Source: Cyanidioschyzon merolae (lineage: Eukaryota). Taken from it: DNA of 64,000 nucleotides. The translations under genes and the position numbers were made by a program. Location of the stretch: the NCBI GenBank assembly GCA_000091205.1, contig AP006491.2. One strand, given 5' to 3'. The notes under the pieces are model-generated. The model did no database searches. It was not told the DNA's origin and worked only from the letters and a program-made list of their open reading frames with translations. The number at the start of each line of letters is the position of its first letter. Position 1 is the stretch's first letter. Positions 1,095-62,222 of the stretch are shown piece after piece.

Positions 1095-1190
1095 GTGGAC
1101 GATTTGTCTTTCAAAGATAATTCACTTTGTGACGGAACAAGTTCAGTGAGCTTTTGGTAAGAACTTGTGAACAAGTCGTGAAGGCATGAC
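1095..1190. repeat. Short dispersed repeat, family 2 (~90 bp), also at 29485-29590
   Basis: Shared core gtctttc.aa..a..ttat..gaca.ga..agctcagtg.gcttttggta.gaacttgtgaacaagtcgt.aa.g, seen directly. The ORFs 968..1525(-) and 29314..29592(-) share the peptide DLFTSSYQK.TEL as an artefact of this repeat. Confidence 0.6.
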
Positions 1191-2680
1191 TTCAAGTTGC
1201 ATACGTCGTCCATCCGGCGCCGGCGATGACTTTTCGACGGCATGCTTTGAAACAGAGGGTTCGAAAATTTTGAAGAATCCGTGATCTGAGCATGCCATAC
1301 GTAAGGCAAGGACAAGGCCGAGGGGTCGTACCCATGCATGGGATTATGATATCGATTCCCTGATGAACCCGTGCTCGTGTTCGTCGTGAACCATCTTGAT
1401 CCCGGTGACCTAAAGAATTCCAACGGCGTCGAAGAAGCCTCTCCAAAACGAATGCCGAAAATCCTGAAACGACGTATCAATTCATTAGCCCTTATTGCTG
1501 GACTTCGAGGTTCGATGCGCAACATCTATACAAGCTCGGAAAGTGATCGAAATGCTCGAACAGAGCGAGCTTCTCATTGTTCCATTTTCATTTGATACAA
1601 GTGTCAGCAGCAATGTTCTCATCCGAGGCGATCAGTGCATCGGGGATGTCCACCGCGGCGCTTGGCGATCCGCTGGGATTTATCCGTACATCGGGCGAGC
1701 AATCTTTTACCCAGAGACTTAGGATCCAAGGTTACAGACACATCTGGGATGCGCCCGGTAGCATCGTCTACTCACGTATGCCCAATCGTACATGTAATTC
1801 GATTTTCATACAGCGACGTTGTCACCCAAGGCGCTATGTACATCTCAAATGTCCTTGCTGGGTTTTCAAGTCTCGGTGCACTCCGCTGATGACACTGCTC
1901 AACGCGTTCAGTTCAGGCTCTACCAGAGACCAACACGACAATCGCAAGATCAGGTCAGACGCAAGCAATACCAAATGGATACCGTCGAGCTGGCACGCGC
2001 CGTCGCGTGTTCCCGTCGGCTCCAGCACATGCTGCAACAGTAAGTCGCATCGTACAGGGGCGCCATTCGGGCTGCGTTTCGATCGTCTGAGCTATCATTA
2101 CATGACCAGTGCGAGAAACACGAGATTCGCACGATGGCTATGCGTGCTGGTTCCAGCCAGCTCTCAGCGTGGCTGTCGATCTATGTACACGGAACCGGAA
2201 ATGCACATGCGCTCCTTGCGTTGAATACCGAAGCGGTGAGTGAATCCTGCAGTTCACGCTGATACCTCGGTTCTCAATTCCTGATCCATGCGAGCACTCC
2301 AAGACACTATGCACAGCTCCGAGCTTCGCTCATGCCGCGAACCAAGCCCAGTATAACCATCTGCATCCCGAGTCATACGCGGATTCGAAAAAACGAACGA
2401 CGACCTAAGCCGTACCCCCGCATCAGCCTGAACCAGATTCCGAATACAAAGCTTACCATTGTAGAAGGCTGATGCCCTGCACTGAGCGAAACCCAGTAAA
2501 CCCTGACTCAGCATACTCGCGTACACCAGCGAAGGCCTTATGGCGCATGTCCGTGACAAGAGTCGTGTGGCAATGCGCATCCATGCGAACATGCCGTGTG
2601 GAGCTGCGCTGTACCCGCAAGGCTCGATACCGCCGCCATAACCCGGCAGCTACGAAACGTCAGCTCGCCTCGTGTACAAT

Positions 2681-3574
2681 CTACAAATGATTTGTTCCCG
2701 TCCCATGGCAGCGCTTACAGGTCAGCATACCCTTGTGTTGGCAGACGGGGCACGGTCGACACACGGTCGACGGATTTCCAAGACGCTCGCGTGCCTCTGC
2801 GTCACCCGCTTGCGCCCGCTCAACGAGCTGATTCATCTCCTCATAGCTGGGAAACGCGGAAACGTATCGGCAGCCAGCACCGCGACACCACGGGCACTGC
2901 CGCGCGCCCGCGCCGTCGCACCAGATACAGCGATCCATGTAGCTACTGAGCGGCGAGCCGAACCCGTCACTCGGATTCCGCTTTCGCCGGTAATACACAA
3001 CCGAGACTCCCCGCGATGCCGCACTGTCCGCAGCACCCGAGCCGGAACGTCTGCACGTGCAATCGTCAACGTCCTGAGCACAGGAACCGGTCCGTGCCTG
3101 CAGGGTGCTGCCTTCACAAGCACAGTCCGTCACTCCAGCAGCTGAAGCGTCCACAAGCGGTGCACGGTTGCCGGACGGCTGCGGACTCGACTGACTCTCT
3201 GGCGTAGCGGCTCCTGTTTCTGTACCTGTGCTTCTGTTTGGGTTCACCGTACGCGTGCCCGTAAGTACGCTCTGCCGCAGCTCGGACGCGAAGCGTGCCT
3301 GGAAACTAACTTCCGGGTGATACACGCCCGGACGCTCAGCCCACGCCGACAACTCCATCGCCACCGAGACCGCGTCGCGCTCATACGCTCGCTCCAGGCT
3401 GCGCCGCGTCGTCGCCCCGCCCTCGCCCAGCGCTCGTAGCTGCTGCCACCGACTCGAGTATCGACTCCGTTTCTCTACTGTCTGACCATAAATGCGCCAA
3501 CTATGTCTACTCGAAAGAAGTCTATCACCTTTCGTTCCGAGAACAAACATTGTCGTTCCCTCGGAGCTGTGCAC
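2681..3574 (-). CDS. DnaJ-like zinc-finger protein (BSD2/PSA2/LQY1 type). Four CxxCxGxG repeats at the C-terminus and a low-complexity N-terminal region. Start uncertain.
   Basis: C-terminal peptide carries CIWCDGAG, CPWCRGAG, CPVCQHKG and CKRCHGTG, i.e. four CxxCxGxG units in two pairs. The ORF is 297 aa. Confidence 0.5.
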   Translation of the reverse strand: MHSSEGTTMFVLGTKGDRLLSSRHSWRIYGQTVEKRSRYSSRWQQLRALGEGGATTRRSLERAYERDAVSVAMELSAWAERPGVYHPEVSFQARFASELRQSVLTGTRTVNPNRSTGTETGAATPESQSSPQPSGNRAPLVDASAAGVTDCACEGSTLQARTGSCAQDVDDCTCRRSGSGAADSAASRGVSVVYYRRKRNPSDGFGSPLSSYMDRCIWCDGAGARQCPWCRGAGCRYVSAFPSYEEMNQLVERAQAGDAEARERLGNPSTVCRPCPVCQHKGMLTCKRCHGTGTNHL

Positions 3575-3789
3575 AAAACACCGAACACTTTTGAAATGCT
3601 AGCAACTTTAGAAGCAACTGCAGAGGCGTTCACCACAATGTCAACGGAAGCCGCTACCCGCGAACGGTGATGGCGCTCTTGCCGGCAAAGCGCCTCCGTC
3701 AAAACGCCGCCATCACCGCTGACGCGCGTCGCCATCTCCATCGACACGCCATCGATCGCCAAGATCTTACACCACGCAGCGGCCTGCGT

Positions 3790-4007
3790 TACCCCGAGCT
3801 GGGCGCTTGGTATCAGTGCACGGTGTAGCATCCATCGACCGACGCCCAAGCCCCATAACCGATACTTCTGCTCGGATATACTGGTTGCTTTGTAGGTTCT
3901 ATCGTGCGCCAAGTGTGTGTCGTGAGCGTCCGCGGCAGCGCCCATAGCGCCGGTGCGGTCGCTGCACGGAGACAGAACATCGTTTCCGTACCACTGAGGG
4001 CGTCGGA
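3790..4007 (-). repeat. SINE-like dispersed repeat copy, head-proximal two thirds, no A-tail
   Basis: Segment-by-segment homology to 49430-49640: gtgcacggtg.agcatccatc ... ctcggatatactggttgctttgtaggttctatcgtgcgcc ... ccactgagggcgtcgga. Confidence 0.6.
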
Positions 4008-4309
4008 TCAAGGAATGCTACGCCTGACACGGACTCGGGGCTGGTTATCATTCTGGGAGCCTGCAAGCTACACATACAGAAATACTGCCTGGGGAAGCGC
4101 GAAAAATGATATGCTTGGAGTCCACTAGGAACAACGCGACGCCCAAACGCACACGAAACACCTCCAGTCCCAGAATGAAATGCCTTGCGTACGAGTTGCT
4201 CAGATCTCGCTGAAGCGTCCGTCGCTGGGCAAATCATGAAGCACAATCCTGGTAACTCGTCCGGCTCGCAGGAGCTTCCGCCTAGGAGATAAACTTTCGG
4301 CAATGCGGA

Positions 4310-6900
4310 AAGCTTTTCGACTTTTAAAGATAACCGTGGTGGCGGAAAGAAATCCTTTTCTCGTTATTACTAGGTGTCTAGTTTCTGTTCTTTTTTTCTA
4401 AAGTGCGCTCGATACGCGCACCTCTATATCTGGCAGGCATCAGACACGACGCGCATGCCGCCGTTGAAGGAAAACGCTATTCTGATCCTTCGCGTGTTGT
4501 TCTAAACTACAAGATGCATTTGCGTTAGAGCCCCAGCAAAGTATAGATTTTAGTTCTAGTGTGTTTCAACCCTAAGATTAACGTATGCAAGAGTTTTTCG
4601 CGGTTTATAACGGAAGCGTTCAAAATGCGTTCATTTTCAAAAATCAACATATACAGGAATTTTATGGGGATGCAGGTCGAGGACCCTGGGAGCACCGCTG
4701 TCGCCGACTGCCGGAAGAAAACCAAAACCAATGCCGAACCCAGAGGAACAAGACGACACCAAGGAGCAAAAGCGTGAGGCTCGGCGTCAGAAGCTGCGAG
4801 AAAGTCGACACTACCACGAGATAATTGTGAACGCATGTCTACTTGGACATACCAAGAATCCGTACAAGGAAAGGTTGCGGGACGCCATCAGAAACCGTAA
4901 CGAGTCGTACTCCAGGGGCATTATAAAGGCTTCGTCAGGGCTGATGCATTCGGTGGAGACGTATCGCGACGTGACGCACATCAAAACAGTCGAGGTTCCG
5001 GAGGAGGTTTTCGACAGGACCTTCATTAGGCACCTAATGCTTGGCAGAGAAGGAACCTCGATGAGAAATGAGCGAGTGCATGCCCTCCATGAAAACTGCG
5101 GCGAACAGCGCTTCAACGGTACTCGGTACGGCGAGAACTGGAAGATTTGCTGGTACGGGACGATGGAGTACCTCAGGAACCTGAAGAACCATTTGAACGT
5201 GAACCTCGGACGTTTCATGATACGCTCTATTTTTTTCGCTGTATCCGGGTCTCTCTCGCAAAGGGATATGGATCATCATCGATGGCATCTTTAACGATCG
5301 TAAGAATGAAGAGGAGATCGACTTTGGCGACTAGTAGACATCACGCTGGAGAAGGAATGCGGCTTCTGTAATCCGTACGGCTATTCAAGAGCACCGTGCG
5401 GTCTTGGCGCTGGCGAATCCAGTAGAAAAGATATCAGAGTTGAAAAAAGATGAAATGTACGTTATGCCCTCATCCTCCGCAATTTCGTGTTTTTGGACCG
5501 AGAACTCGAACGCAAAGCGGAGCTGAAGCTGAGTGAGTGGACAAATGACGAATCGGAGACACGGAAGGGTGCCCTAATGGGGAAGCGCTTCAACGTCGTT
5601 CCGTTGTGCAACATCAAGTCGCACTTTGTGAGTATCGACTCTGGCGTCCTTTACTGCATCAAGAAGGAGATCTGTCCGGAGTTCGATGTAAGGAAGATAG
5701 AGTTCACCGGCGAGAACCGGGAGACGTGCTGGAAGATCATCTTCGATTTCAAAAGTGTCAGATTGCGCAAGAAAACGGTATGCACTGGGATTATCGAAAG
5801 CGAATGGGTATGCATATGTGTTCACAACAGGCGCTTGAAGGTAAATCATCTTGTTCCGTCTTCGTTGGCGCCCTCGGCGAAGCGTGAAGAAAACAACGAG
5901 ACGCGCTCTGGAACACATGATCCGCAGGAGAGCGACTCTGTCGCTGGCGCGGACCCTGGGAATACGAACATCGTGACCATCGCTGCACCTTTTGTTGGGT
6001 AGATGGCAATGACCGCAACCTACGTCAGAAAGACATGCGTGTTCTAAAGTTCTCAGGAGCGAGGTACTATCGAGAATCGGGAATAATGAATGCGAGGAAG
6101 AAAACAGAGAAATGGAACGCAGAAGTGCAAGAGCACCTGGTAGCGATCAGCCAGGTGACGAAGCGCGGAGCGAACTTTCGAGCTTTTCTGGAGTTCATGA
6201 AAATTCTTGCTGCTGATGACGAGGCGCATTGGAAAGCGTATCCAAAAGCCCAGGTAAGCCCGTCAGCGTTTGAATCTGTACAGAGGGAAGCAGCGTACAT
6301 TCGTCACCTTTTCAATGAGTTGAGCGCCCTCAAAGAGCATGAAAGTCAAAGGCTCGTGGTGGCAAACTGAGCAGGGCGTCGGGTGCCCTGCCCAAAGGGT
6401 GTACACCAGCCCCGTCGACATGAGCGTACAACGAATGCGCACAGCGTTTTCACACCATACCGATGGATGAGTTCCGAGCATCCTATACACACCATGCATT
6501 GGGTTGTACGCTTCAGAGGGTCGATATGGAAAAGTGTCAGCGGAGCCCTGAGGGTGTAAAAAAGTCCGGAGCGCTGACGGTACAGCGAATGGAACCGAGG
6601 GCGCAAGTTCGAGGACTGCTTGCATTCGTAAGTACAAGCAATGATGGCAAGAAACGTATGCAGTTTGTGAACCAAGACTTTCATGCCGCTATCAATACCA
6701 GACGAGGAGTTTTCATGAACATGAGACCCGCAGCGCAGACAGAATCCAACTTTGTGGGGCCACCTCCCAAAGCTGCGTTCTACAAGGAGAAGCTGAAACC
6801 GACAGCGGACGGCGGGTCCATGAAAAACGCTACGAGCCGTCTGTTTGTGGGCGCACCAGTACACCGCACATAGGCGCGAGACATTTTTTGCTCTGCAGGT
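4310..6900 (+). mobile_element. Fanzor/TnpB-like RNA-guided nuclease element, copy 1. Decayed: the reading frame is split over 4 ORFs (4731-5294, 5487-6002, 6035-6370, 6463-6873) by a stop and frameshifts. Preceded by an AT-rich 5' block.
   Basis: K/R-rich N-terminus. RuvC-I-like [15 protein letters not shown] resembles GIDLGxxNxAT. The C-terminus has HHALGC..EKC followed by QDFHAAINT, the D.NAA.NI RuvC-III hallmark. Homologous to copies at 60100-62133 and 57125-57720. The frame breaks differ between copies, so they are lesions and not introns. Confidence 0.75.
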
Positions 6901-7111: not shown

Positions 7112-10100
7112 TTACCGACGAAAACGATAGCGTACAAATGGTACCTCAACTTCCTCACCAGTGGAGGCATCTTCTGCCATGACTTCGAAAACCAGGAAGC
7201 GGTCCTTGTCGGTCAGTTGTATTTTTCCAACGGCTTGCGCAAGCTCAGTAAGCGGCGTCGCGCGGCGTTCCGCGGCCTTTTTCGGTGCTAACCAGCCTGA
7301 AAAGAGGATCGCAACGCCACACGACATCATGCTGATATGGAGACCAAGCTCGCGCTCAAAATGCTCCATGAACTCGGCCAACGTCAGATCGTGTCCATTT
7401 CCATCTACCTCGATACGATCCCACAGCGAGAACGTACGGTTACCGCTGGGTGACATGGGCTGCAACGGGGCCTGGATTGGTTCGCTAAAGTTGAAAAGTG
7501 AAAGTGCCAGGTTCACGTAGCTGTTGCGGAAGCGCTCGAGCACCTTGACGCGATCGACGAGCGGGACGCTCGTTCCGTTCGTCACAGCGGAGCTCGTGCT
7601 GATCGCGGAGAAACTCGAAGCTGAAAGCGCCCGTGGATTCGTCCTCAAGATCGGACGGATCTGAGCGAGCTTGTAGATCTCGAGACACACGAGCCCTGCC
7701 ACCAGCGCGGTACTCGTGGCAATCGCGGGTATGATTCGCCCCGCGATGCCTCGTGACTTGTGCTTGTCCGCCAGCGGTATCCCATAATTCAAAGCGCGCA
7801 AATTGCTCGCAGCGGTGACGAAATCCATGTCCCAGCGATCCTCGTCGTCTTTCTCGAACTCCAACGGATAGAGGGACAAGCTGGCAAATGATTCGGGTGG
7901 CGGCAAGCGCGCCAACAGCTGCTCAATGCGTTGTTGGTCGACATTGGCGGTCACAGCGGCGCCGCTTGCTTGCGCCTCCTCCTCAGAAGCGGCAATCTTG
8001 ACACCAGAACTCGGTTGGAAAGCAGGTACCGAAACATTCGCAACGATCGCTCGTACCTGCTCGCGATCTGTGCAGAGAGGTATTCCGAACGTCTCTGCGC
8101 GCAGGTTTGCCGCCGCTACAATGAACTCAAGGTGCAACGGATCTGCAGGATCGAAACGAAGCGGCGTCGGCGCCCGTTTCGTCCCGCTCCAAAATGGCTG
8201 TCCCGAGCTGTCAACCATATCTGGCGGAAACGCGTGAAGTAGCTGGCGAATATTGTTGACGTAGAGTTCTTCGAACTTGTTGCGCGCCCAAACCACGCAG
8301 TCCTTGAAGTTTTGCGGGCGATACGTCTGCAGGTTCTCAAGTACGTTCTCCAAAGCTCCAGAAAATATGCCGGGTCCCTGTTTCTCTAGCTCTGCGATGT
8401 ACTCAGAGCCTCGCTCCAGGTACTGCTTGGTATCCTCGATGGAGGCCTTGAAGAGGCCCTCAAACAAATCGCGAGCCCATTGAAGCGTATGTTCGATTCT
8501 GTAGGGGAAATTTTTCAGCGTACACATGGGAATGCTTCGCTCCGGCGGGTCGCGCGACGATCCGTATGACTCGGTGAGATAGGGAACCACCACTTGGGTG
8601 CTGCCTTTGGTGCCTAGCGTGCCGGAATCCAGCAGAGGTTTCAGATAGTAAACGCAGCGCTGATCGATATATAAACGAGCGTCAACATTATCCAAGGCCG
8701 TGCAAACCCCATCGAGCGGCTCCCAGAAATCATCGCTGAAGACATGCTCGGTGTCCGGTCCAACGCGCATCTCGAGCGCTCGAACGTTGAGCTCCGGATT
8801 CAGCCGCAGAGCGGCATCGCGTGCCGCCAGGGACTTGCTGCGGCCAATGTCGGTTGCTCGGAAGAGAAACTGCCGATTCAGATTGCTCCGTTCTATCGTG
8901 TCCATATCGGTAATTGCAATCGATCCACCATGACTCGCGAGTCCCAGTCCCATGCACGCCCAACATTTGAGGAGCTCTGCAGCAATCGCTCCGGCCCCAA
9001 CACAAAAGTAGGCCAGATCGTGAATCGTATCCTGCAACGCACGGCCAAAGACTGCAATCTGTCCGTCATAGCGTGTCCCCCGGGGAGCGCACTCCAGCTC
9101 GTTTGGCAACGGCGTCGGTAACGCCTCCATGGCGTTGAACGAAAAGATCTGGTGAATGGGGGTAAACTTGCCGGTGACTGCCTTGAGAACCTCCTGTGCG
9201 GCGATCCCACCAAGAATCGATGCCATCGGAGCGAGCTCCCCGTATACGGTTCTGACAAACGCGTTAAGCAATGCATCGTGCTTTTCTTGAATATCGGCGG
9301 GTAGCATGCGCTTGAACGCCGCAACTTCAGCCTCAGTACCAGGCGCAGGCAACCGTCCGAATTTTGATAGAGCCTGAAACATGGCATGCAATGCAAAGGT
9401 TCGCTCCTCATTCATAAAGTCCAGCGATGCAAACCAATTCGGGTCCACCACGTCTGAGAGCGTGGCGCTCTCTGGATCCCATGTCGACGCTGCCATTCTA
9501 TACAGCAGCTCAACCGGGTGAAAGTGCACCGTGCGGGGTACTTTCACTTCAGTGACGATGCCACCCCGTCGGTAGACGCCGGCCTCACGGGTGTCAGCGT
9601 CAATCACAAAAGTATACGGACTCGTGATCTGAACGACACGAAACATCCGGTTGGGTTCATTGAACATGGGCATTCCGTCCACCTCGGTGAACATGACATA
9701 CATTCCTTCCTCCAGGTCATGCCGCTGATCATCGAGGCAGGTGACGCACGCCTTTTCCTCATTCGAAATATGGCTGATATGCGCGGATCGTGGCTCCTCT
9801 CCGTTGTCATCGATAACTGTATGGGCGTCGCCAAAATCGTTGAGGACGTAGCCGAATACTCCTCGTGACTGAACGATCGTCAGTGGCACCCTAACCGATC
9901 GGCAGACGCGATCGAGCTCGATGTGCCTATCGATGGAGAGCTCGTTCACTAGCACAACTGCTGCAAACCCACGAATACGATCTGGATCAATGAGTTCCGC
10001 CCAGGACGCCGCGTCCTCCGTGTACACGTGACAGTACGGGTTCAGCTCCACTAGGTGCGGTACCACGACCGTATGAAGTGGTGTCCCCAGCAGTGACGCA

Positions 10101-10552
10101 TCGCAAGCGTAAAAATTGGCGGCCATATGCTGCAAAGCTAGTGGTGCTGGATCATAGACGTGGAGCGCATGGAAGCCAGCCAGCGCCAGGTCTTTCGCGA
10201 TCTCCGTTCCCGTCCCTGTGAGTCCAATCACCAGCACTGAAGCTCCTGCGAGGCGACGTTGCGCCTCGTGACCCAGCACGTACAGTTGACGCGAGTACAG
10301 GGACTCGTCTATGGCCCCGCTCTCTGCTTGCGTGCGCGACACGCGTTCCGGTGGGACAGAGTCCCCCAGCCGCAACATGCTTGTCCGGCGGTTTTTCCAA
10401 CTACCCGAAGGCGACTCACCGTCAGGGCCCCGTAACAGACGTTTGCTTCCGGTTCCCGTCTTGACGCTTTTCGCTTTTTCGCACAAACCTGCGCACAAAT
10501 ACAGCTGAAGACGACGCCTGCCGCTGATCGCTTTGTCGACTTTGTTCACCAC
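7112..10552 (-). CDS. UBA1: Ubiquitin-activating enzyme E1 (UBA1-like), single exon. The true start may be the internal Met at ~10378 (MLRLGDSV..).
   Basis: 1146-aa ORF. IDESLYSRQLYVLGHEA and VLVIGLTGTGTEIAKDLALAG form the ThiF/MoeB adenylation fold. A second adenylation domain and the catalytic Cys context PMCTLKNFP are present. The UFD-like C-terminus is present. Confidence 0.95.
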   Translation of the reverse strand: MVNKVDKAISGRRRLQLYLCAGLCEKAKSVKTGTGSKRLLRGPDGESPSGSWKNRRTSMLRLGDSVPPERVSRTQAESGAIDESLYSRQLYVLGHEAQRRLAGASVLVIGLTGTGTEIAKDLALAGFHALHVYDPAPLALQHMAANFYACDASLLGTPLHTVVVPHLVELNPYCHVYTEDAASWAELIDPDRIRGFAAVVLVNELSIDRHIELDRVCRSVRVPLTIVQSRGVFGYVLNDFGDAHTVIDDNGEEPRSAHISHISNEEKACVTCLDDQRHDLEEGMYVMFTEVDGMPMFNEPNRMFRVVQITSPYTFVIDADTREAGVYRRGGIVTEVKVPRTVHFHPVELLYRMAASTWDPESATLSDVVDPNWFASLDFMNEERTFALHAMFQALSKFGRLPAPGTEAEVAAFKRMLPADIQEKHDALLNAFVRTVYGELAPMASILGGIAAQEVLKAVTGKFTPIHQIFSFNAMEALPTPLPNELECAPRGTRYDGQIAVFGRALQDTIHDLAYFCVGAGAIAAELLKCWACMGLGLASHGGSIAITDMDTIERSNLNRQFLFRATDIGRSKSLAARDAALRLNPELNVRALEMRVGPDTEHVFSDDFWEPLDGVCTALDNVDARLYIDQRCVYYLKPLLDSGTLGTKGSTQVVVPYLTESYGSSRDPPERSIPMCTLKNFPYRIEHTLQWARDLFEGLFKASIEDTKQYLERGSEYIAELEKQGPGIFSGALENVLENLQTYRPQNFKDCVVWARNKFEELYVNNIRQLLHAFPPDMVDSSGQPFWSGTKRAPTPLRFDPADPLHLEFIVAAANLRAETFGIPLCTDREQVRAIVANVSVPAFQPSSGVKIAASEEEAQASGAAVTANVDQQRIEQLLARLPPPESFASLSLYPLEFEKDDEDRWDMDFVTAASNLRALNYGIPLADKHKSRGIAGRIIPAIATSTALVAGLVCLEIYKLAQIRPILRTNPRALSASSFSAISTSSAVTNGTSVPLVDRVKVLERFRNSYVNLALSLFNFSEPIQAPLQPMSPSGNRTFSLWDRIEVDGNGHDLTLAEFMEHFERELGLHISMMSCGVAILFSGWLAPKKAAERRATPLTELAQAVGKIQLTDKDRFLVFEVMAEDASTGEEVEVPFVRYRFRR

Positions 10553-22094: not shown

Positions 22095-22200
22095 CTCTGA
22101 TGTAATGATCGTTTTTACGTTCTATCGTGCGCCGAGTACCTGCTTTTGAGCGCCTGATAGAACGCCTGTAGCGTCACGCATGGAGTAGCGGGAGCACCGA
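22095..22200 (-). repeat. Short fragment of the SINE-like repeat family
   Basis: gatcgtttttacgttctatcgtgcgccgagtacctgc..gagcgcctgatagaacgcc aligns to ggtcgtttcatacgttctatcgggtgcgcttagtacc of the 49335 copy. Confidence 0.45.
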
Positions 22201-34425: not shown

Positions 34426-37400
34426 TCGAGACGGTAGACAGGTACGCTAGCGCAGCCAGTTGCCCGCCTTTTCTGGCCGGCAGACTGCAGTAGGTTTCAG
34501 CTTGTGCTTGCATACTTCGAGCCTGAGAAGCTGTCCGACAAATCTAGATGGCGGCAGCTCCTTGGGTCCCGTCTTCAGCGCGGCAAAACTCCTGATATAG
34601 ATAGCAGCGTTAAAGTCTCATTTCACAAACTCCATGCGTTTATTGCCGCTGCTCGAGCTGACCAATGGAAGGAGGCATCGGACTCGTGCCCGCTGTGCCA
34701 CTTGGTTCGCTGTCAGCAACTCGTACTTTTCTGTGGCCGAAGGTCTCCGCTGTCTTCTCTCCGTATCGACCCTCTGGCGTGTACATCTGTGCTGATTCCT
34801 TAGATTTTACTTGCTTCATATGAACGCACTTTTTTATGCTCTTAGGTGAAGACCTTCCCCCGGCGAGAGGGACTTGCGGAAGAAAGAAGGCATATGTCCA
34901 AACGTCAGCGTGTGCTAGAAGCCGCAGCGATTCTGTCTGAAGAGCGATCATTACGTTTCAGGACTGAAAACGCTCTTTCGATGGAGTTGAGCCACGGAGA
35001 GTACGAAGGAATGAAAAGCAGCTCTACTCCCGGATAGAATCAGCGAAAAGCTCGAACGCGAAGGGCAATGGTGAAATGCTATGTTGTCCAGTAGAAGGAC
35101 GTCGCCAGACCTGCGGGGAAAAGTCTTCGATCATTCGACGAAAGGGTTGCTGTTGTATGAGCGTTCCCTACGAGCGAAACTCAGGCCGTCAAATGAATCC
35201 ATTCTAGCTAGAACAGATGATGATGTCCTCGTTCTCCTCGAGTTCTACCGAACATTGCACGGGCTCCGTCTCCGCAAATACCCATCTACGCTTCAACCGC
35301 TTCATCCGAAGCAAGTCTCATCGACTGAAACAAACCGACATGACTCCGCTTCATGCTCATCGCGACGTTCCAGCAACGCTATCCTTGCGATTTCGGTGCA
35401 AGATGGTCGCGCGTGAACTACGACTCTTTTTGCGACTATATCCCAGTGTTTTCAGGACGACACGAACAAGCCGTTCAGAAACAGAGACGCCCGTGGTGGC
35501 TGTTACCGTCGCTTTTGCTTTCCATTACATGATCAACGGCTCGTTTTCTATCATTGGCCGAAAGCAGTCTTTCACAGTACCAGTTTCTGGCGCGTGACGC
35601 GTATACTTCTTTCTTTCAGTTTCCCCAACCATCTGAGTGCTGTGGTACATCTGACCTGAATGCGGAATGCAGTCCTCGTTCCACTATTCAGTAAAGAATC
35701 TTTCCTAAAGAAAGTTCGTCGTCAATCTACAATATACATTGCGTAGTGTTTCCGATCTCCTGCAACACACCACGAAAAGCATTCAATTAAATGCAGCGAA
35801 GTTTGAACAATGTTGAGTGGAAACACTATGAACAGGTGGATCTCCTCTGGTCTGGATGCAGCAAGTCGCAGATATGTCGCAGGATGTAACATTTGGTTTC
35901 AGGGAACTGTTATCGAGCTTTGGGACGATTCCAGATCTCCTGAACGCTCTCGATTTGGCATTGTTCTGAATTGTCCATTGCTGCAGCGTATGGACGTGGA
36001 GCCGTTCTCTGAGGAATTCCGATAAAACGCTTTCGAGTGCGTCTCAATTCGACCTAGGCATGAACAGCCGGGGCGTTGGAAGCGCCTCGGAAACGTCAGG
36101 CTGTGTGCAGCATATTAGCATTTGCTTGGGCAGGAAGCAAGGATTCCGCCTCGCATCACCTACATCGAAAGTGATCAAAGCATACAAGCAACGCATTCGC
36201 CAGCTCAAATTCCAAAGTGCCAGCGAATGGACGGCCCAGTCGCGCTGGCGAACCTTGTGCGCAAGCCTCATGAGGAATCCCCAAACCTCTGGCGTATCCT
36301 GGCATCTGCACTTACCGATTCGCTTCACGAACATTCACCCATGCGCCCGCAAGCAAACGCATTCCTGGCAGCAATGCTTTGTATGCGGATATTTCGTTAA
36401 TATCGCAGCTTACAGGTTATCTTTCGCTGCAGCGACAGAACAGGGCATGCCGTGCAGCTCCGGCTGTCGCAAGCTTATTTGCAACCCTTCTCCTGAATCA
36501 CGTATAGGCGACTGCGAACCGGCAACTACAGATTGCAGCTTCCGAGACGCGAACCAGCTTCTAATCGATGCCGGCGACGTTGCTCGCTATCGCACGCTGG
36601 CGGCAGCGCGTACCAGTCTCCCGTCGACGCATGGGGAACGAGCATACGCAATCCAAATGCTCGTGTTTCTGTGCGTCATTTCCAAAATATATAGCTTTGT
36701 CTCTATCATTTGTCTGCCGATCCATGCACGCCAGTGCTGCTCGCATCGCACCGTTTTCTCGACTGCACCATCAATCGATCATTCGAGCCGAATTCCCTGC
36801 ATGCACTGCGATTGCCGTTCGCAACCAGGGAAGCGCGAAGACACCTCCATGCCTTTCGGGGGCGCATGCAGCTCGCATAAGACCCCGATCACTCGTCACG
36901 TTGCGTAGAACGCATGAACCCAGCGAATGCGCCATTGTTCAGCGCCATTTGAACCCCCCGCTGCGTCGCCGAAAGCGCCATCCACGCGATACCCGCCCAG
37001 CAACAGCGCAGCAGCGTCGACTCGAGACACGCCTCCGGTTGCCGTGTGATCGACGAGCTCCCGCAGCGCGTGCAGATCACCGGCGAAGGCAACGAAGAAG
37101 CCGCAAGGGGCATTGCGCTCCGGATTCGAGCTGCCAACGGACGCGCGCGCCCAGCGATGCGATGCGACGCCCTGGGGATCACGACGGCACGCATCGCCTT
37201 CGATTTTCTCCCAAACGCGTTCATTTCTACCACAAGTTTCGCGGGCTCCAACGGCGAAATCCATTTTTGGTGGGGACACGTGTCCGTCGTGATGGTGCGT
37301 TCCTGGCCAATGATATATCGAACGAAAACAGTGCTTGAGACCTTTCCTCTGTATTCTTCTGCGGCGCGGCTGTTATGGATGGACACCGTCGGCTACGTGG

Positions 37401-38410: not shown

Positions 38411-40284
38411 GTTACGTAGCCGACGAGCGTACATTGAAGTACATCAGGAGTGCCGGGTTGAGCCCAGATGGAGGCAGAGGGGTACGAGGCCAAGATTGGC
38501 CTTTCGTATGGAGAGAACGAATTAGAGAAATTGGAATCGGGGTAGAATTTCAGGCGATGGAGCTGGTCAATGAATACATTACTTCTCTGAAACGGAAAGA
38601 ATGTCTCTCGGTCGCAGTGCCGAGGCGAGAACGTGTGACGAAAAGCACCAAAGTGAACAACCAGCAGCGAGGGAGACGTGTGCTCCAGTCTCTGGCTTTC
38701 TGCACAGCACTCATTTGCGCCTTTCTGGATTTCCATTATAGTCTTTCACCTTAATTGTATTCCATCATCAGGTGCGTATACTCAAATGCCTTTTCGCATT
38801 TCATAGCCAGAAGTGTTCGGATTGCGTTCATTTTGAAAAAATAAAGAGCCCGATGGAAAGTTACGGACACGAAAGTCGAGGATCCTACAGGGCCATCCTC
38901 GCCAGGTTCCGCTAAAAACCCGAAAAGAATGTTGTTTTTGCCTGTGAACGAGGGAAGAAGAGCAAGTGACAAAGAAGACGAAGATGGAGATGTTGATGGG
39001 TGATAGGCGGGACCAGGTGTTCGCGAGACTCGGCGATAACGAGACTGGAATCGCACTGAGGGCTCGAGCTTTGGCAATTCCTGCATTGATGAGTTCAGCC
39101 ACGGGCAATAAACACAAGGAATTTGTGAATTGAGACTTCAACGCCACCATCATTAGCAGACGCTCTACAGTGCTGAAGACGACGAGACCCGAGGAGCTAC
39201 GGCGATCCGAATACGTGTGGTATCCTCCCAGGCTCGTAGTGAACTGGTAGAAACGGATGCCGATACCAGACTGCCGGTCAAAAATGCAAGGAGTCGTCGG
39301 TGCATGGGTAGATCTATTTATTCACCGTTCTTGTAGAACGTTTTCTGTTTTATTGAGAGCAACGATTATCTTCTGCTGCTGCATCCTCAGCACTTTTCTG
39401 CAGTCACGACAGCAGGCAAGTTTCGGCAGCCGAAAGCGCCCCTGCTGCCGCGTTCTCGATCCGCCATGAAAAAGCGTACGCAGATCATGCGATCCGGACG
39501 AGTGTGCATCTCCGGATGCTTGACTCTAGGTATGCCTATGTATTTGTATGAGTATGTGTGCCAAGAGCTGCAGCGATCTGATCACGAGAGTTACCGCTCC
39601 TCGAAGCTGCATGCGGTACAGCGACGGCTGGTCAAGGCGACAAGCAACCTGCGTACCAGAGGCATACGCTCGTGTACCAGCAGAGAAATTGCGGATGCAG
39701 CCGGGTGTGTACGTTTCAAGCGTTCGTGCACGCTACCAGTGAGCTTGTCGCTTTTGCACCCGACTGAATACAATTGGGGTAACGGACTTACAGGCCTCAT
39801 ACGGGCACTCCAAGTCGCAGATGCCAGCGCACAGGGCCTGCTGGTCGCCGGCCCGTCACACCGCTCGCTGCCTGGAATCGCTTCGTACGCCTTTGCACAC
39901 AGGCAGTGTCGAGGCGAGATCTCCACTAAATTCATGCACTCTACATGGAAACATCAAATGATGCTGCCTGTATGGATCCGAATATCATTTGATGCATCCA
40001 GACATGCTGTCGAATGCGGTGGAAGCACGACGTGTCCGATTTATCTTCCTGGAATGTGCACCAGTGCAGCAAGTACCCGAACGCTTGTTATACGGACGCA
40101 CGCCCTCGCCCGTTTCGTGGCGATGATTCCGTTTCCAGTGGCTAGCAGCGTCATGAGACTGGTATCCTCCCCGAGCGCCGGTTTGCTGAGGTCACTACAT
40201 CCCTTCCGTTCTGCCTGCATCCAGGCAAAACGCGGGCGCACAGCGCCCCCATTTCCACATCCGATACCGACACATCCATCTGGA

Positions 40285-57124: not shown

Positions 57125-57720
57125 GACGCCAGCGGTGTACAGTAGTGGCGACCGGGCCGCCCTAGAAGAAATGTCTCCGACTGATGTGCAGAAGCCTGCC
57201 CGTCTTTTTGGACCGGCCACCTACTACTGCTTCAAACTTTTTCTCATATAGTTTAACTTTGAGCGGTTTTCCAACCAAATTCTCTATCGTCGACCCGAGA
57301 GGTCTTTCCTCTCTCACCGCACATTTCCTTATATTGATTGCGGCGTTAAAGTCTCGGTTCACAAACTCCATACGTTTCTTGCCATTGATTGTACTTACTA
57401 ACGCAAGCAATCCTCGAACTTTCGCTATCCTTTCCATTTGCTCTTCTGTCAGCGGTCCGTACTTTTTTTATATCCTCAGGTCCCCGCTGGCACTTTTCCA
57501 TCTCGACCCTCTGAAGTGTACAGCCCAGTTCATGGTGTGTATACAATGCTCGAAATCCATCTACCGGTATTATAACAAAACGCCGTGCGCACTCCTTATA
57601 CGTTCTCGTCGTGGGATCTGGTGTACACCCTTGTTGGGTCGTCCAGCGCCTTGCTTCGTACGCTACTACGAGCCTTTGACTTTCATCCTCCTTCAAGGCA
57701 CTCAACTCACTGAAAAAAAA
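57125..57720 (-). mobile_element. Fanzor/TnpB-like element, copy 3. This is a 3' fragment: the C-terminal RuvC-III region plus the conserved 3' non-coding tail. It is inserted between divergent CYTH and SulP genes.
   Basis: ORFs 57346-57705(-) and 57162-57437(-) encode ...YTHHELGCTLQRVEMEKCQRGPEDIKK and ..KKRMEFVNRDFNAAINIRKCAV. The tail ..ccactactgtacaccgctggcg matches the copy-2 tail. Confidence 0.7.
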
Positions 57721-59904
57721 ATGCGAATGCCCGATACTCCCTACATTATAGATTCATGCGGAGATCAAACTGCCCGCCATCCGAGATTGCATGTACGGAT
57801 CTCAGCGCTCGCGTCGGAAGCATCGGCAGTGGACGAGCGCCTTGTTGTGCACTGCCTGTCCACTGGACACGCAAGGTACTTTCGTCGGAACATGGGCGTT
57901 GAGAATGCTTTAGGCGGTTTCATAGTAACGAATACCTTCAGCGGTAGCGGTGTACGTTTCGTCGTACGGAACCGGAGCCAGTGCAACTCGCTGGTGGTGC
58001 CTGGGTTCCGCGCGAGGCGGCGTACGCGCTGCGGAGCACTTGCTCGCGTACGGGGGACAGATTCGGCGCCAGAGGGTACCCCCGACGCCGAAGCGAGGCA
58101 CCGTCCCAAGCCTGGTGAGCGAGGGCTCTTCCCGCTCGTTGCACCGCGTGAGGATATCGGGCGCTATTTCGTTGGAGAGCGTCGGATTTTGGACGAACGC
58201 ACAGCGCGCTATCCGCTACGCTCGACGGTAGAGGAAGTGCTGGCGGGCATTACGGTGGCGATGGCGCTGCTGCCTGCGGCGGTGTCTTGCGCGTTGGCCA
58301 CGGGCGTGCCGCCGCTCGCTGGAATCGTCTCGACTGGTCTCCTGTGTGCGATAACTGCCGCACTGGGAGGACGCCCTGGCATGATCTCAGGAACATCTGC
58401 AGCGCTCATTATTCTGCAAGCGCCTCTCTATCAACAGTACGGCGCAGCAGCGGTCGCTGCCGCCGTGGTGCTCAGCGGTATACTCCAGCTTTTCTTCGGG
58501 ATCTATCGTTTGGGAAAGTTTGTGCGGCTGATATCGTACCCTACCTTTCTGGGATTCATCAGCGGCATCGCCATCTTGACGGCGACAAGTCAGGTCTATG
58601 CGTTTCAGCTTCCAGCGGGAACCGGGCTGAGCCCGGGCGCACCCTGGCTCCAGGGTAACATGTTGCGTGCAGCGTTGATCGTCGCAGCGCTCGCCGCTGG
58701 AGTCGCCCATGTATGGCCCTTGATCATTCAGCGACTACAGCGCCGGCGCCCCGATAGTACCCATCGGTGGCAGCACCGCCTCGCTGAGCTGTTGCGTTGG
58801 CTCCCAAGCCCACTAGCGGGCATCCTCGTGGCATCCATTTATGCGGAGGTGACGCAAGCGCCTGTGCGGCGGCTTGGCGACTTTTTGCGCGACACGCTGG
58901 CACAGTCAGGGGCCATTGGCGTATCCTGGGCAGCCCTGCCGTCAACACCGCTGGCATGGATGGCCATTCTGAGCACCGCGCTTGGTCTCGCATTCATCGG
59001 TCTTTTGGAATCTCTGTTAACCATGACTTTGGTAGACGAAGTCACGGAATCGAGGGGTAGCACGCGTCGGGAGTGTCTAGCGCTTGGGGCAGGGAATATC
59101 GCCGCGGGCTTATTCGGTGGCGTGGGCGGCTGCGGCCTCCTGGGCCAGTCGCTCCTGAACACGAAATCAGGGGGACGCGGGCGTCTCTCTGGACTGACTG
59201 CGGCGCTGTGTCTTCTCGTGTTGGCGAGAAATCCGAGCGGACTGATGATTCGGATTCCCGTCCCAGCCATTGCAAGCCTTATGGTGCTGGTGGCGCTGGG
59301 CTCGTTCGAATGGGCATCGCTGCGCTTGTTTCGTGCCATACCTCTCGCTGATTCGCTGACCATTGTGAGCGTTGCCCTGATGACTGTAGCAACGCGCAAC
59401 GTCGCCCTGGCGGTCCTGTTTGGTGTGGTATTCTCGGCGCTGGTCTTTGCCTATAAAGCGTCGCGACGCATTACCGCCCAGAGCTTTATTTCGGAGGACG
59501 AGCAAACGCGCGGATGGCGGGGATACCGGATTGACGGTCCGCTGTTCTTTGGCACGGCGGAGCGCTTCAGTCGTCTGTTCGACCCAGCACGGGATCGTGC
59601 CGAAGGCCATGAGCACGTGATCATCGACTTCTCTGGTAGCCGCATCTGGGACGCGACAGCGCTAGAGGCGCTAGACTCCCTAGCCCGTCAGTATAGGAGC
59701 TATGGTATTCGGCTGCATCTGTGGGGTCTGTCTCGAGATAGCGCACGTCTGCTGCGCGAGGCACGCGCCTACATCGACGAGAGTGTCACGAACGAGAAAG
59801 CGCTCTACTTGTACGAGCGGGTTGTAGCCGACTATCCCACAAACGATAGTCTAGAGGTTGAGTACGAGCTTTTCGCGAAAAGAGAATCGGGGAATGCAGC
59901 GTAA
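57721..59904 (+). CDS. SulP-family sulfate/anion transporter with C-terminal STAS domain. The start is taken at the Met at 57721 (alternative 57886). The longer ORF from 57184 overlaps the Fanzor fragment and is rejected.
   Basis: Sulfate_transp-like N-terminus LAGITVAMALLPAAVSCALATGVPPLAGIVSTGLL. Multiple TM helices. The STAS domain is HVIIDFSGSRIWDATALEALDSLARQYRSYGIRLHLWGL. Confidence 0.88.
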   Translation: MRMPDTPYIIDSCGDQTARHPRLHVRISALASEASAVDERLVVHCLSTGHARYFRRNMGVENALGGFIVTNTFSGSGVRFVVRNRSQCNSLVVPGFRARRRTRCGALARVRGTDSAPEGTPDAEARHRPKPGERGLFPLVAPREDIGRYFVGERRILDERTARYPLRSTVEEVLAGITVAMALLPAAVSCALATGVPPLAGIVSTGLLCAITAALGGRPGMISGTSAALIILQAPLYQQYGAAAVAAAVVLSGILQLFFGIYRLGKFVRLISYPTFLGFISGIAILTATSQVYAFQLPAGTGLSPGAPWLQGNMLRAALIVAALAAGVAHVWPLIIQRLQRRRPDSTHRWQHRLAELLRWLPSPLAGILVASIYAEVTQAPVRRLGDFLRDTLAQSGAIGVSWAALPSTPLAWMAILSTALGLAFIGLLESLLTMTLVDEVTESRGSTRRECLALGAGNIAAGLFGGVGGCGLLGQSLLNTKSGGRGRLSGLTAALCLLVLARNPSGLMIRIPVPAIASLMVLVALGSFEWASLRLFRAIPLADSLTIVSVALMTVATRNVALAVLFGVVFSALVFAYKASRRITAQSFISEDEQTRGWRGYRIDGPLFFGTAERFSRLFDPARDRAEGHEHVIIDFSGSRIWDATALEALDSLARQYRSYGIRLHLWGLSRDSARLLREARAYIDESVTNEKALYLYERVVADYPTNDSLEVEYELFAKRESGNAA

Positions 59905-60099: not shown

Positions 60100-62133
60100 C
60101 AGCGTTCCGCTCCGCAACGTTCCATCCATTGCACCGAAGTGCGCCCCGTCGACAACACATTCCAGCGTGGGATCAGGCGCACGAAGTTTCCCTGGCACAG
60201 CAGCAGTGACGGACATCAAAACAGTCGAGGTTTCGGAAGCGTTTTCGACAGGACCTTGATTTGTCGCCTGATGCTTGGCACAGGGGAAACGCGGAGGGGA
60301 AATGAGCGGGTTCATGCCCTCCACGAGAATCACGCCGAGTACCGCCCTGAGGGTACTCGATTCAGGGGTGATTCGGATCTTTAAACCTACGGGACGATCA
60401 AGTACCATACGGACCTGAAGAACCATTTGACGATGAACCTCGAACGCTTCATGAAACGCTCCGTCTATGCACTCTACCCGGGCATCGCTCGCAAAGGAAT
60501 ATGGGCGATTATCAATGGCATCACGAAGGATTGCCAGAATGAACAGGAGATCGAATTCTTCGACAAGAAGACATCACGCAGGAGAAAGAATGAAGCTCCT
60601 GTAATCCATTGGGTTATACAAGAGCATCGTGCCGTACTGGGGCTGGCGAACCCAACAGAAAAGTTATCAGAGATGAAAAAAAGATAAGAAAAGATACGAT
60701 CGCCTCATCCTGCGCTATTTCGTGTTCCTGGACCAAGGACTGGAACGCGAGGCATAGATGAAGCTGAGTGAGGAGAAAAATGATGCGTCGGAGAAACGAA
60801 AGGCTTTCCTAATGGGGAAGCACCCTAACGTCGTTCCGTTGAACAACATCGAGTCACACTGTGTGACTATCGACTCCAGAGTCCTTCAAGGCATCATGAA
60901 GGAGATCAGTCCCGAGTTCGATGTTAGCAGGGAGGAGTTCTCCGGTGAAAATCGGGAGATGTACGGGAAGAACATCTTCGATGTCAATCGTCTCAAAGTG
61001 AGCAAATAAAAGGTATTCGCTGGGATGATCGAAACCGATGGAGTAGCCATGTGTGTACAGTATCGGAGGTTGAAGGTGGATCGTCCCATCGCGCCTTGGG
61101 CTTCGCCCGTGACGAAGCATGAAGATAAGATGGAGATGGGCCCTGAAACGTGTAATCCCCAGGATAACGACCTTGTCGTTGGCGCGGACCCCGGGAACAC
61201 GAATATCGTAACCATCGCAGTACCCAAGCGTGCGGAAGATGGCATTGACGGTAACTTGCCTCAGAAAGACATGCGTCTGTTGAGATTCTCGAGAGCGAGA
61301 TACCATCGAGAATCGGGAATCATGAATGCAAGCAAGAAAATCGAGACGTAGAATGCAGGAATGAAAGAGCACCTGGAAGCTATGACCAAGTTGACTAGCC
61401 GAGGAGCGGACTCGGAAGCTTTTCGGAAATTCATGGAAGTTCGTGTTGCTCACTGGAAGGCGCTGTGGAAAGAGTATACAAAGTCCCGGTAGGCTTGTCT
61501 GCGTATGAGTCTATTCCGTGGGATGCAGCGGGCGTTCGCAAACTTTTTCAATGGGTTGAGCGCCTTGAAGGAGGACGCAAGTCAGAGGCTCCTGGTAGCA
61601 CACGGAGCAGGGCGCTGGAAGACCCGAAAAGGATGTACACCAGCTCCAACGACAAGAACGTACATGGAGTGCGCAAGGCGTTTCGTTACGATACCGGTAG
61701 ATGAGTTTCGAGCGTCCTATACGTACCATGAACTGGGGTGTACGCTCCAGAGAGTCGAGATAGAAGAGTGCCAGCGGAGCCCTGAAGATATAAAAAAGTA
61801 CGGACGGCTGGCGGAAGAGCAAATGGAAAGGAGGGCGAATGTTCGAGGACTACTTGCATCAGTAAGAACAACCAATGGCAAGAAACGTATGGATTTTGTG
61901 AACCGAGACTTTAACGCAGCCGTCAATATAAGGAGATGTGCGGTGATGGAAAGAAGACCTCCAGGATGAACAAGAGTGAACTTTGTTGGACAATCATCTA
62001 AAGTGGAACTATATGAGAAAAAGTTGAAACGAGTAGTAGGTGGCCGGTCGAAAAACCTGGGAGGCGTCTGCACATCAGTTGGGGACGTCTTGTCTAGGGC
62101 GGGTTTCCCGCCACTACTGTGCACCGCTGGCGG
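60100..62133 (+). mobile_element. Fanzor/TnpB-like element, copy 2. It is decayed, with in-frame stops and frameshifts across ORFs 60139-60384, 60427-60687, 60758-61009, 61025-61351 and 61505-61969. Its conserved 3' tail ends ~90 bp before the RCC1 gene start.
   Basis: [15 protein letters not shown] (RuvC-I-like). YTYHELGCTLQRVEIEECQRSPED. MDFVNRDFNAAVNIRRCAV (RuvC-III). ~75-80% nucleotide identity to copy 1 over ~2 kb. Confidence 0.75.
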
Positions 62134-62222
62134 CAGCGTTTTTCTTTGAAAGGCGTGCGGTGTGCGCAGCATATCGACATAGTTCGTTATCGTGCACCAT
62201 AGTCTCTGTTCACTGCACCGGC

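Follow-up and report, generated by a model that had tools for sequence, protein, structure and literature searches.

A locus on chromosome 9 of Cyanidioschyzon merolae best explained as an inactive, mutation-eroded copy of the Fanzor1 element CMe-1A

Background

Bao & Jurka (2013, Mob DNA 4:12; PMC3627910) include Cyanidioschyzon merolae in their founding account of the Fanzors, and describe CMe-1A as an element with about 150 copies in this alga, every one of them matching a 3169-bp consensus at about 80% identity. According to the same paper, the consensus gene (CMe-1) comprises a single exon for a protein of 734 amino acids, the 5' 635 bp of the element match TE-N2_CMe, there are no terminal inverted repeats (TIRs), and an intact protein is still encoded by some of the copies (PMC3627910). 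Fanzor1 proteins are eukaryotic relatives of TnpB and Cas12, the RNA-guided nucleases of bacteria. [quoted passage not shown]

How does a single locus compare with this picture? The window considered here is a 64-kb stretch of C. merolae DNA (64,000 nucleotides, to which all coordinates refer), and the best explanation of the locus listed first in Table 1 (copy 1), which we hold to be almost certain, is that it is an inactive copy of CMe-1A, eroded by mutation, whose sole gene is a Fanzor1. Because the family is already published, together with its consensus, its number of copies and its nature as a Fanzor1, and copy 1 is dead, the discovery value of the locus is low: the novelty attached to it in a preliminary description does not survive the presence of both C. 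merolae and CMe-1A in the published account (PMC3627910).

Identity and extent of the element

Eight ORFs in the window match proteins of C. merolae 10D exactly (BAM79944-79956, on an 810-kb contig), and these matches place the host of the copies as C. merolae 10D, nuclear chromosome 9, bearing out the earlier view of a eukaryotic nuclear locus. All copies were aligned with the published CMe-1A consensus (3169 bp) as reference. Window positions 3838-6772 aligned by blastn with consensus 83-3015, at 80.3% identity over 2.9 kb. Because consensus position 83 falls at window 3838, the start of copy 1 is projected to about 3756 and not, as had been proposed, 4310; this 5' end is a projection from the alignment, and the degenerate 3' tail includes a deletion of about 40 nt. 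No inverted repeat joining both ends was found in copy 1 or in copy 2 (see below), and the element contains neither a TnpA-like gene nor any other transposase gene, Fanzor1 being its only gene.

The 5' part of copy 1 (window 3838-4405, aligned to consensus 83 to about 645) corresponds to TE-N2_CMe, and also stands alone at six other places within the window. Of the related copies, only about one in four has this module. Because most copies in related environmental genomes are without it, sequence comparison suggests a composite make-up for CMe-1A, with TE-N2_CMe joined to a core of about 2.5 kb, a point that is absent from the part of PMC3627910 drawn on here. The end of the module and the untranslated 5' leader of the core together make up the segment 4310-4720, which the preliminary description had singled out as unusually AT-rich; the difference is real but modest (GC 40-47%, compared with about 50% in the remaining element, and with 55-60% in the flanking genes).

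A short motif, (C/A)ATCG, recurs at the 5' junction of the core in several different upstream contexts. ATCG was considered as a possible 5' target motif resembling a TAM (transposon-adjacent motif); its G, however, pairs inside the terminal hairpin GCGCTC-GGT-GAGCGC, and the motif may instead mark where the element truly ends.

Table 1. Copy 1, its parts, and other CMe-1A-related features and neighbours in the window
Feature	Position	Strand	Basis or remark
Copy 1, CMe-1A long form (5' module and Fanzor1 core)	3756..6890	+	blastn to consensus; both ends approximate
5' module, TE-N2_CMe equivalent (consensus ~1-645)	3756..4405	+	consensus alignment
Small GC hairpin gcgctcgatacgcgc at module/core boundary	~4405-4419	+	sequence
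Core start and 5' leader, relatively AT-rich	4406..4663	+	start of homology common to all related copies
Fanzor1 (CMe-1) coding remnant, pseudogene	4664..6859	+	global alignment to 734-codon consensus CDS, 81% nt identity
RuvC-I motif including GADPG (DPG signature)	5946..5978	+	ORF 5487-6002
MDEFRAS, shifted RuvC-II glutamate	6463..6483	+	ORF 6463-6873
RuvC-III motif FVNQDFHAAIN	6664..6696	+	consensus FVNRDFNAAIN; invariant R replaced by Q
Degenerate 3' tail, family terminal hairpin mostly lost	6860..6890	+	3' end alignment
Ubiquitin-activating E1 gene	7112-10552	-	convergent with copy 1
Copy 4, short 3' fragment (consensus 2748-3024)	34512..34785	-	71% identical to consensus
Internally deleted remnant (consensus 786-968 and 2864-2967)	38737..39182	+	consensus alignment
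Copy 3, 3' fragment only (consensus 2507-3145)	57127..57764	-	84.6% identical to consensus
Copy 2, 5'-truncated (consensus 1215-3169)	60206..62155	+	86.8% identical to consensus

The coding remnant

When copy 1 was compared codon by codon with the consensus CDS, about six to nine frameshifting indels and four or five premature stops were found, dividing the gene into at least six frame segments; the coding sequence is therefore broken, as had been noticed, but the four ORFs then counted were too few. With these frameshifts and stops, copy 1 is unable to make the protein, and it is a genomic fossil. In addition, the RuvC-III arginine that is invariant in the family has been mutated and the 3' terminal hairpin is degraded. 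The K/R-rich N-terminus described earlier is there to be seen, K/R/E-rich and readable from 4731 (MPNPEEQDDTKEQKREARRQKLRE), the true start (Table 1) lying in a different frame. Across the RuvC region, conservation is lower at third codon positions than at the first two (e.g. 0.80 vs. 0.94), evidence that purifying selection once acted on the protein. Third-position conservation goes up only slightly in the last 200 nt of the CDS, a suggestive but not decisive sign of an extra nucleotide-level constraint there.

Conceptual repair yielded proteins that share 65% (copy 1, over 714 aa) and 78% (copy 2) identity with the published CMe-1 protein. Against a family profile made only from relatives no more than 42% identical to P0001 (an intact protein closely related to the window copies), the repaired proteins scored E of about 1e-107 to 4e-107 for copy 1 and about 1e-122 to 7e-122 for copy 2, so that at the level of sequence their membership of the family is far above chance.

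Assignment to Fanzor1

Direct searches of domain collections gave little. Nothing reached threshold when eight ORF fragments of the elements and, alongside them, ten intact relatives were scanned with Pfam, or in an NCBIfam scan of five relatives; the only direct matches were weak ones to a Cas12f1-like TNB domain (E=0.0018-0.26) and guided_TnpB (E=0.0067), PF07282 matches were sub-threshold, and the only precomputed Pfam label on the relatives was a weak DUF8286. Because these scans were without a significant match, the assignment rests on profile and fold comparison, and the Pfam blank, considered as evidence against Fanzor1, was set aside in favour of the decisive profile and fold searches. 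A profile of ten intact relatives matched the Parasitella Fanzor1 PpFz1 (PDB 9cf0) with E=6.7e-13, and the Guillardia Fanzor1 GtFz1 (PDB 9cer) with E=0.065.

A structure was predicted for P0001, which took the place of the broken window sequence (its best alignment with copy 2 shows 73% identity and takes in 47% of the repaired copy-2 query). The AF2 model (pLDDT 83.9, pTM 0.82) had SpuFz, PpFz and GtFz as its top seven Foldseek matches, with E from 2e-16 to 9e-14, and Cas12 and TnpB came far behind. With Spizellomyces SpuFz (9ceu, 8gkh) the match extended over the full length, at E of about 1e-16 and a target-normalised TM of 0.71-0.73.

The expected motifs are also in place. Among 102 relatives, D484, E656, R724 and D725 are invariant, and N727 is conserved in the family. 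GADPG occupies window 5946-5960 in copy 1, and in the 102 relatives its D and G are conserved and its P is nearly invariant. All 102 sequences have the shifted glutamate (family motif VDEFRTS), while the canonical upstream RuvC-II position reads AYG(A/S)(A/G), with no acidic residue. The RuvC-III motif of copy 1 keeps its aspartate (NQDFHAAIN); copy 2 reads NRDFNAAVN. Both the RuvC-I-like motif and FVNQDFHAAIN had been correctly picked out in the preliminary description. The same is not true of a putative H..C...C zinc site: the sequence reads HH-x3-C-x10-C, and the family does not conserve these H/C residues of the CMe sequences, most relatives having T, S, Y or gaps at the columns concerned. 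The canonical form of the CxxC...CxxC finger between RuvC-II and RuvC-III is absent from the CMe clade. Overall, the identity of the CMe family protein as a Fanzor1 is supported by the sequence profiles and by the predicted fold and, with the signature motifs and the lesions relative to the consensus CDS, the original suggestion of a decayed Fanzor/TnpB-like copy holds good.

The 3' end

In more than 50 related copies, conservation continues for about 60 nt beyond the stop codon and stops sharply after the terminal hairpin. The CMe-1A 3' end carries GAAAGGCG, and flanking DNA lies beyond. Such a conserved 3' end with a hairpin is as would be expected, by analogy with known systems, of an omegaRNA or of a cis-acting end. 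Over its 3' 252 nt the consensus folds with z=-2.9, a level that none of 200 shuffles reached. A covariation test on 39 copies, for which the structure came from a narrower fold, found 88.0% of cells paired, the same as in shuffles; RNAalifold gave no structure for the full 273 columns, and the 3' end had no match in Rfam. Because covariation equalled that of shuffles, we do not claim the candidate omegaRNA as proven.

Other copies in the window and their neighbours

About a dozen CMe-1A/TE-N2 fragments are scattered across the window. Copy 2 is a pseudogene (at least three frameshifts and six stops) with an intact 3' terminus and hairpin (GCGTTTTTCTTTGAAAGGCG); its nucleotide identity to copy 1 is 76%. 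Copy 1 itself is flanked by a gene of unknown function and by the E1 gene, with which it lies tail-to-tail, as originally described. The intact 3' terminus of copy 2 adjoins the region in which an RCC1-like gene starts, and 16 bp separate the 3' end of copy 3 from the start codon of a thiamine triphosphatase gene.

Two long ORFs start within TE remnants. For annotation, it matters that CMe-1A/TE-N2 fragments distort naive ORF calls. The environmental relatives (71 loci) are a resource for studying the termini, target site and omegaRNA of an unclassified Fanzor1 carrier. A literature search found no report testing a C. merolae Fanzor; as a zinc-finger-less clade of Fanzor1 from a thermo-acidophilic alga, the family could provide an engineering candidate if an intact copy proved to be active.

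Mechanism and alternative explanations

If the characterised Fanzor1 enzymes are a guide, the protein of an intact element would bind an omegaRNA transcribed from the element's 3' end, the last part of which would be a guide taken from the DNA immediately next to the element, and the complex would cut matching double-stranded DNA at a split RuvC site; in the CMe family GADPG and RDFNAA would each contribute their D, and VDEF its E, to the active site.

Might copy 1 nevertheless be a live gene, its frame breaks being introns? The spread of the coding signal over three frames does resemble split exons. However, the frame is broken by stops and by indels of 1-7 nt within otherwise colinear homology to the consensus CDS, with no insert able to be an intron; the stops stand in frame in place of conserved codons (e.g. 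at 5332, 5335, 6368 and 6421); and the codon-level maps confirm that copies 1 and 2 carry different lesions, as the preliminary description had stated in arguing for decay. Introns are very few in C. merolae. The consensus gene is itself a single exon in the published account (PMC3627910). The alignment to the consensus CDS thus rules out the intron reading, to which we give next to no credence. Scarcely more plausible is a bacterial or organellar TnpB of the IS200/IS605 or IS607 kind, present as a contaminant or through recent horizontal transfer. The weak TNB (TnpB/Cas12f) and guided_TnpB matches, and an element that has hairpins near both ends and is without TIRs, as in IS200/IS605, would fit such an origin, but the copies sit between single-copy nuclear genes of chromosome 9, the protein of about 734 aa has a large N-terminal REC region as in Fanzor1, eukaryotic Fanzor1 structures match it best in both fold and profile (TnpB reaching only E=0.01), and the element has no TnpA-like gene.

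A further alternative, very improbable in our estimation though less so than the preceding two, accepts that the protein gene is dead and has copy 1 or its better-kept neighbours, such as copy 2, in use as a source of omegaRNA for Fanzor1 protein from intact copies elsewhere, or as regulatory DNA for the genes beside them. The 3' terminus and hairpin kept by copy 2 next to the start region of the RCC1-like gene, the closeness of copy 3 to the thiamine triphosphatase start codon, and the published existence of CMe-1A copies that still encode an intact protein (PMC3627910) all lend themselves to this idea. Against it, copy 1 has a deleted 3' tail and a degraded terminal hairpin, the RNA structure lacks statistical support, and in a compact genome chance alone would be expected to leave TE fragments beside genes. 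By the inactive CMe-1A reading, which we prefer, copy 1 is simply one of the decayed members of the family. The observations can also be joined into a wider proposal. The core of about 2.5 kb, with hairpins at both ends, no TIRs/TSDs and (C/A)ATCG at its 5' junction, may be IS200/IS605-like by analogy, and its 3' terminal hairpin would then be the last stem of an omegaRNA with a guide read from the flank. The combined reading, in which the core (from 4406 on) is a eukaryotic counterpart of IS200/IS605 with a terminal-hairpin omegaRNA and RNA-guided homing, and decayed copies program Fanzor1, is unlikely as a whole, if a little less so than any of the alternatives above. If it were true, decayed copies with intact 3' ends (copies 2 and 3) could program Fanzor1 from the few intact copies, and the family might persist through RNA-guided homing without a transposase.

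Comparison with known systems

Copy 1 and the CMe-1A of Bao & Jurka (2013) are the same element, the identity of copy 1 to the consensus agreeing with the published value of about 80%. They have in common the TE-N2_CMe-like 5' module, the single-exon 734-aa gene and the absence of TIRs, and differ in that copy 1 is a pseudogene; individual loci are not treated in PMC3627910.

Among Fanzor1 nucleases characterised in both structure and biochemistry, SpuFz1 (8gkh, 9ceu), PpFz1 (9cf0) and GtFz1 (9cer) have the same full-length fold as that predicted for the CMe protein (REC lobe, WED and RuvC), and all share with it DPG in RuvC-I, the shifted glutamate of RuvC-II and the aspartate of RuvC-III. 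At the sequence level, however, identity is only 13-15%, and unlike the solved proteins the CMe clade has no conserved zinc-finger cysteines; its transposon context (unclassified, without transposase and without TIRs) is also different.

The resemblance to ISDra2 TnpB (IS200/IS605, PDB 8h1j) lies in the split RuvC core and, for IS200/IS605 TnpB more generally, in an element that is without TIRs/TSDs, has hairpin-forming ends and carries the gene on its 3' side, together with conservation from beyond the stop codon to the element end, which is the site of the TnpB omegaRNA. The fold match to ISDra2 TnpB is weaker (E=0.01, query-normalised TM 0.16), and the CMe protein differs in being nearly twice the length of TnpB, in its shifted glutamate, in having no TnpA partner, and in belonging to the nuclear genome of a eukaryote.

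A decayed CMe-1A copy beside an E1 gene

Of ten long ORFs in the window, eight are identical to annotated C. merolae 10D proteins (BAM79944 to BAM79956, with CMI locus tags) encoded on a contig of 810,151 bp, and the locus lies on chromosome 9 of the nuclear genome of the red alga. Between 4310 and 6900, ORF fragments on the plus strand follow one another in three reading frames and together give a single protein of c. 720 aa (copy 1). The preliminary description had placed this element tail-to-tail with an E1 gene, correctly, because the downstream minus-strand gene (7112-10552) encodes a ubiquitin-activating E1 with UBA_E1_SCCH, ThiF, E1_UFD and E1_FCCH domains. On the other side, a minus-strand ORF of 297 aa (2681-3574) starts c. 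180 bp from the 5' end of the element; its cysteine motifs are CxxCxGxG-like, and Pfam gave it no match at E<=1e-5.

Fanzors were defined by Bao & Jurka (2013; Mob DNA 4:12, PMC3627910), who give one Fanzor1 family for C. merolae. That source describes this family, CMe-1A, as having c. 150 copies, each c. 80% identical to a consensus of c. 3 kb (3169 bp in its Additional file 1), with terminal inverted repeats absent and target-site duplications not determinable; the 5' 635 bp are said to share 95% identity with TE-N2_CMe, an element in its own right, and some copies still to encode an intact single-exon protein (CMe-1) of 734 aa. The repaired proteins of copy 1 and of a second copy in the window (copy 2) show 65% and 78% identity, respectively, to CMe-1, and the element therefore very probably belongs to CMe-1A.

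The second copy, already noticed in the preliminary description, emerged from self-comparison of the window (60206-61928, 76% nucleotide identity to copy 1), as did two short minus-strand 3' fragments (~57.3-57.7 kb and 34.6-34.8 kb). With the published consensus (Additional file 2 of PMC3627910) as reference for the alignments listed in the table, copy 1 starts near 3756, some 550 bp upstream of the 4310 originally proposed. An internally deleted remnant, in which a RuvC-III region was detected (tblastn, E=2.6e-4), sits just upstream of an ORF at 39466-40659. Counting six fragments of the 5' module along with the Fanzor copies, the 64 kb contain roughly twelve remnants of the repeat system.

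Remnants of CMe-1A and of its TE-N2_CMe-like 5' module in the window
Feature	Position	Strand	Match to CMe-1A consensus	Identity
Copy 1	3838-6772	+	83-3015	80.3%
Copy 2	60206-62155	+	1215-3169	86.8%
Copy 3	57764-57127	-	2507-3145	84.6%
Copy 4	34785-34512	-	2748-3024	71%
Internally deleted remnant	38737-38926 + 39082-39182	+	786-968 + 2864-2967	~72%
5'-module fragment	206-247	+	within 1 to ~640	
5'-module fragment	16049-15870	-	within 1 to ~640	
5'-module fragment	21987-22154	+	within 1 to ~640	
5'-module fragment	34257-34430	+	within 1 to ~640	
5'-module fragment	49458-49649 and 49878-49909	+	within 1 to ~640	
5'-module fragment	50825-50413	-	within 1 to ~640	

Independent decay of the copies

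Lesions were mapped by codon-by-codon alignment of each copy to the 734-codon consensus CDS. The CDS remnant of copy 1 (4664-6859; 81% identity) contains, as aligned, nine indels that shift the frame (two possibly artefacts of alignment, at least six clear from frame switches), three in-frame indels, premature stops at 5332, 5335, 6368 and 6421 (and one more that is alignment-dependent), and a change of the invariant RuvC-III arginine to glutamine. Copy 2 has lost its first c. 1200 bp; a minimum of three frameshifts and six stops interrupt what is left, and their positions differ from those in copy 1. A split, intron-containing gene, which had been rejected from the outset, is ruled out, as the frame is broken by small indels and by point mutations inside an unbroken stretch of homology. 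Copies 1 and 2 are pseudogenes that decayed independently, and the view that copy 1 is inert is supported.

A Fanzor1 clade lacking the canonical zinc finger

The RuvC-I and RuvC-III motifs that had suggested a Fanzor-like nuclease are present in copy 1, at 5946-5978 (an 11-residue motif containing GADPG) and 6664-6696 (FVNQDFHAAIN), as is MDEFRAS at 6463-6483. Scanning directly against Pfam and NCBIfam gave no information on the Fanzor1 assignment, which is borne out by a profile match, by invariant motifs and by the fold of a relative. Homology search with the repaired copy 2 protein found 78 proteins, nearly all from JGI metagenomes, including intact relatives with 26-38% identity to the query. 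A profile of ten relatives matched the solved Fanzor1 of Parasitella parasitica (9cf0; E=6.7e-13) and that of Guillardia theta (E=0.065), and recovered 5426 cluster representatives at E<=1e-3 among 1.84 billion proteins; thus the family is large. [quoted passage not shown] The AlphaFold2 model of P0001, a close intact relative (mean pLDDT 83.9, pTM 0.82), matched the Fanzor of Spizellomyces punctatus along its entire length (E ~2e-16, target-normalised TM 0.71-0.73); next came those of Parasitella and Guillardia, and Cas12/TnpB structures appeared only at E>=3e-4.

The putative zinc site of the preliminary description did not survive this comparison. Its histidines and cysteines are not conserved, being replaced by T, S, Y or gaps in most relatives, so the CMe-1 clade lacks the canonical zinc finger. 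Some intact relatives have two to four tandem repeats of c. 25 aa (ATQKVQDNDLVVDA.KHEE.KEA) directly before the RuvC-I strand (P0001, residues 388-469, and two others, P0006 and P0009), for which disorder is predicted (pLDDT below 50); in the C. merolae consensus the unit occurs once.

An apparently composite element

Metagenome contigs supplied 71 related loci for a comparison of anatomy. The homology that every copy shares starts at a small hairpin (GCGCTC-GGT-GAGCGC, at c. 4405 in the window), replaced by GCGCG-GTCGATA-CGCGC in copies joined to the TE-N2 module. CMe-1A seems to combine TE-N2_CMe with a Fanzor1 core of c. 2.5 kb, because few of the related copies (about a quarter) have the 600-650-bp module upstream of the core, which also occurs independently, and inverted, elsewhere. 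The AT-rich block reported upstream of the coding sequence (GC content 40-47%) comprises the junction region together with the core's 5' leader. A search for terminal inverted repeats found that none exist.

In the metagenome contigs, the core repeatedly faces, head to head, either the 5' end of an inverted TE-N2 or another whole copy (c. 90 bp upstream of the core 5' end in loci L015, L017, L018, L021, L024 and L032; in L054/L057, 87-984 on the minus strand is beside 1100-1484 on the plus strand). The same core boundary is abutted by two or more further upstream modules that recur (one ending ...GCACGCATCG, another ...TTTGCATCA). Such arrangements may point to a favoured site of insertion or to insertions nested in one another.

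At the other end, conservation among the related loci runs c. 60 nt past the stop codon and stops sharply after a terminal hairpin (CGTCGTTCGA-CTT-TCGAACGGCG, or the variant GCGTTTTTC-TTTT-GAAAGGCG) followed by TT, beyond which the flanks are unrelated. This boundary agrees exactly with the end of the published consensus (...GAAAGGCG). Copy 2 retains the terminus and hairpin, ending at 62155; copy 1 has a deletion of c. 40 nt there, and its hairpin is degraded.

Possible function of the 3' end

By analogy with characterised Fanzor1 enzymes and solved complexes with omegaRNA and target DNA, an intact CMe-1A would produce a Fanzor1 protein and, from its 3' end, an omegaRNA whose guide would derive from DNA flanking the element; the complex would cut matching DNA by means of the D/E/D RuvC site. 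The analogy also draws on Jiang et al. (2023), who deal with guide RNAs that overlap the right end of the transposon. The last 252 nt of the consensus gave a fold more stable than all 200 shuffles (z=-2.9), in support of a putative omegaRNA or a cis-acting end. Covariation at the 3' end was not significant, RNAalifold found no structure for the full 3' block, Rfam had no match for the 3' end, and codon-position conservation shifts only slightly near it. In the RuvC region, third codon positions are less conserved than first and second positions, and the CMe-1 protein was therefore under purifying selection while the family spread, echoing the long-lasting coding capacity remarked on in PMC3627910.

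Copies 2 and 3 have intact 3' termini that adjoin the 5' ends of host genes: that of copy 2 (62155) lies next to an RCC1-like gene, and that of copy 3 (57127) is 16 bp from the start codon of a thiamine triphosphatase gene (57111, minus strand). This could be chance in so compact a genome, and would matter if the 3' end yields guide RNA from flanking DNA.

Annotation, and relation to known Fanzors

Two long mechanical ORFs start inside remnants: one of '906 aa' (57184-59904, plus strand) in copy 3 antisense, ahead of a sulfate permease/STAS gene, and one of '593 aa' (62040-63821, plus strand) within copy 2, in its 3' tail, upstream of the RCC1-like gene. The true starts of both genes are further downstream.

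What is added here is incremental and in part tentative: CMe-1A as a composite, a core with a hairpin at either end, a clade without the zinc finger and many metagenome relatives. The structural interpretation first offered was right; the accompanying view that Fanzors are barely catalogued in such algae was not, as PMC3627910, in which Fanzors were first defined, already includes this very family, and later surveys have Rhodophyta among the hosts.
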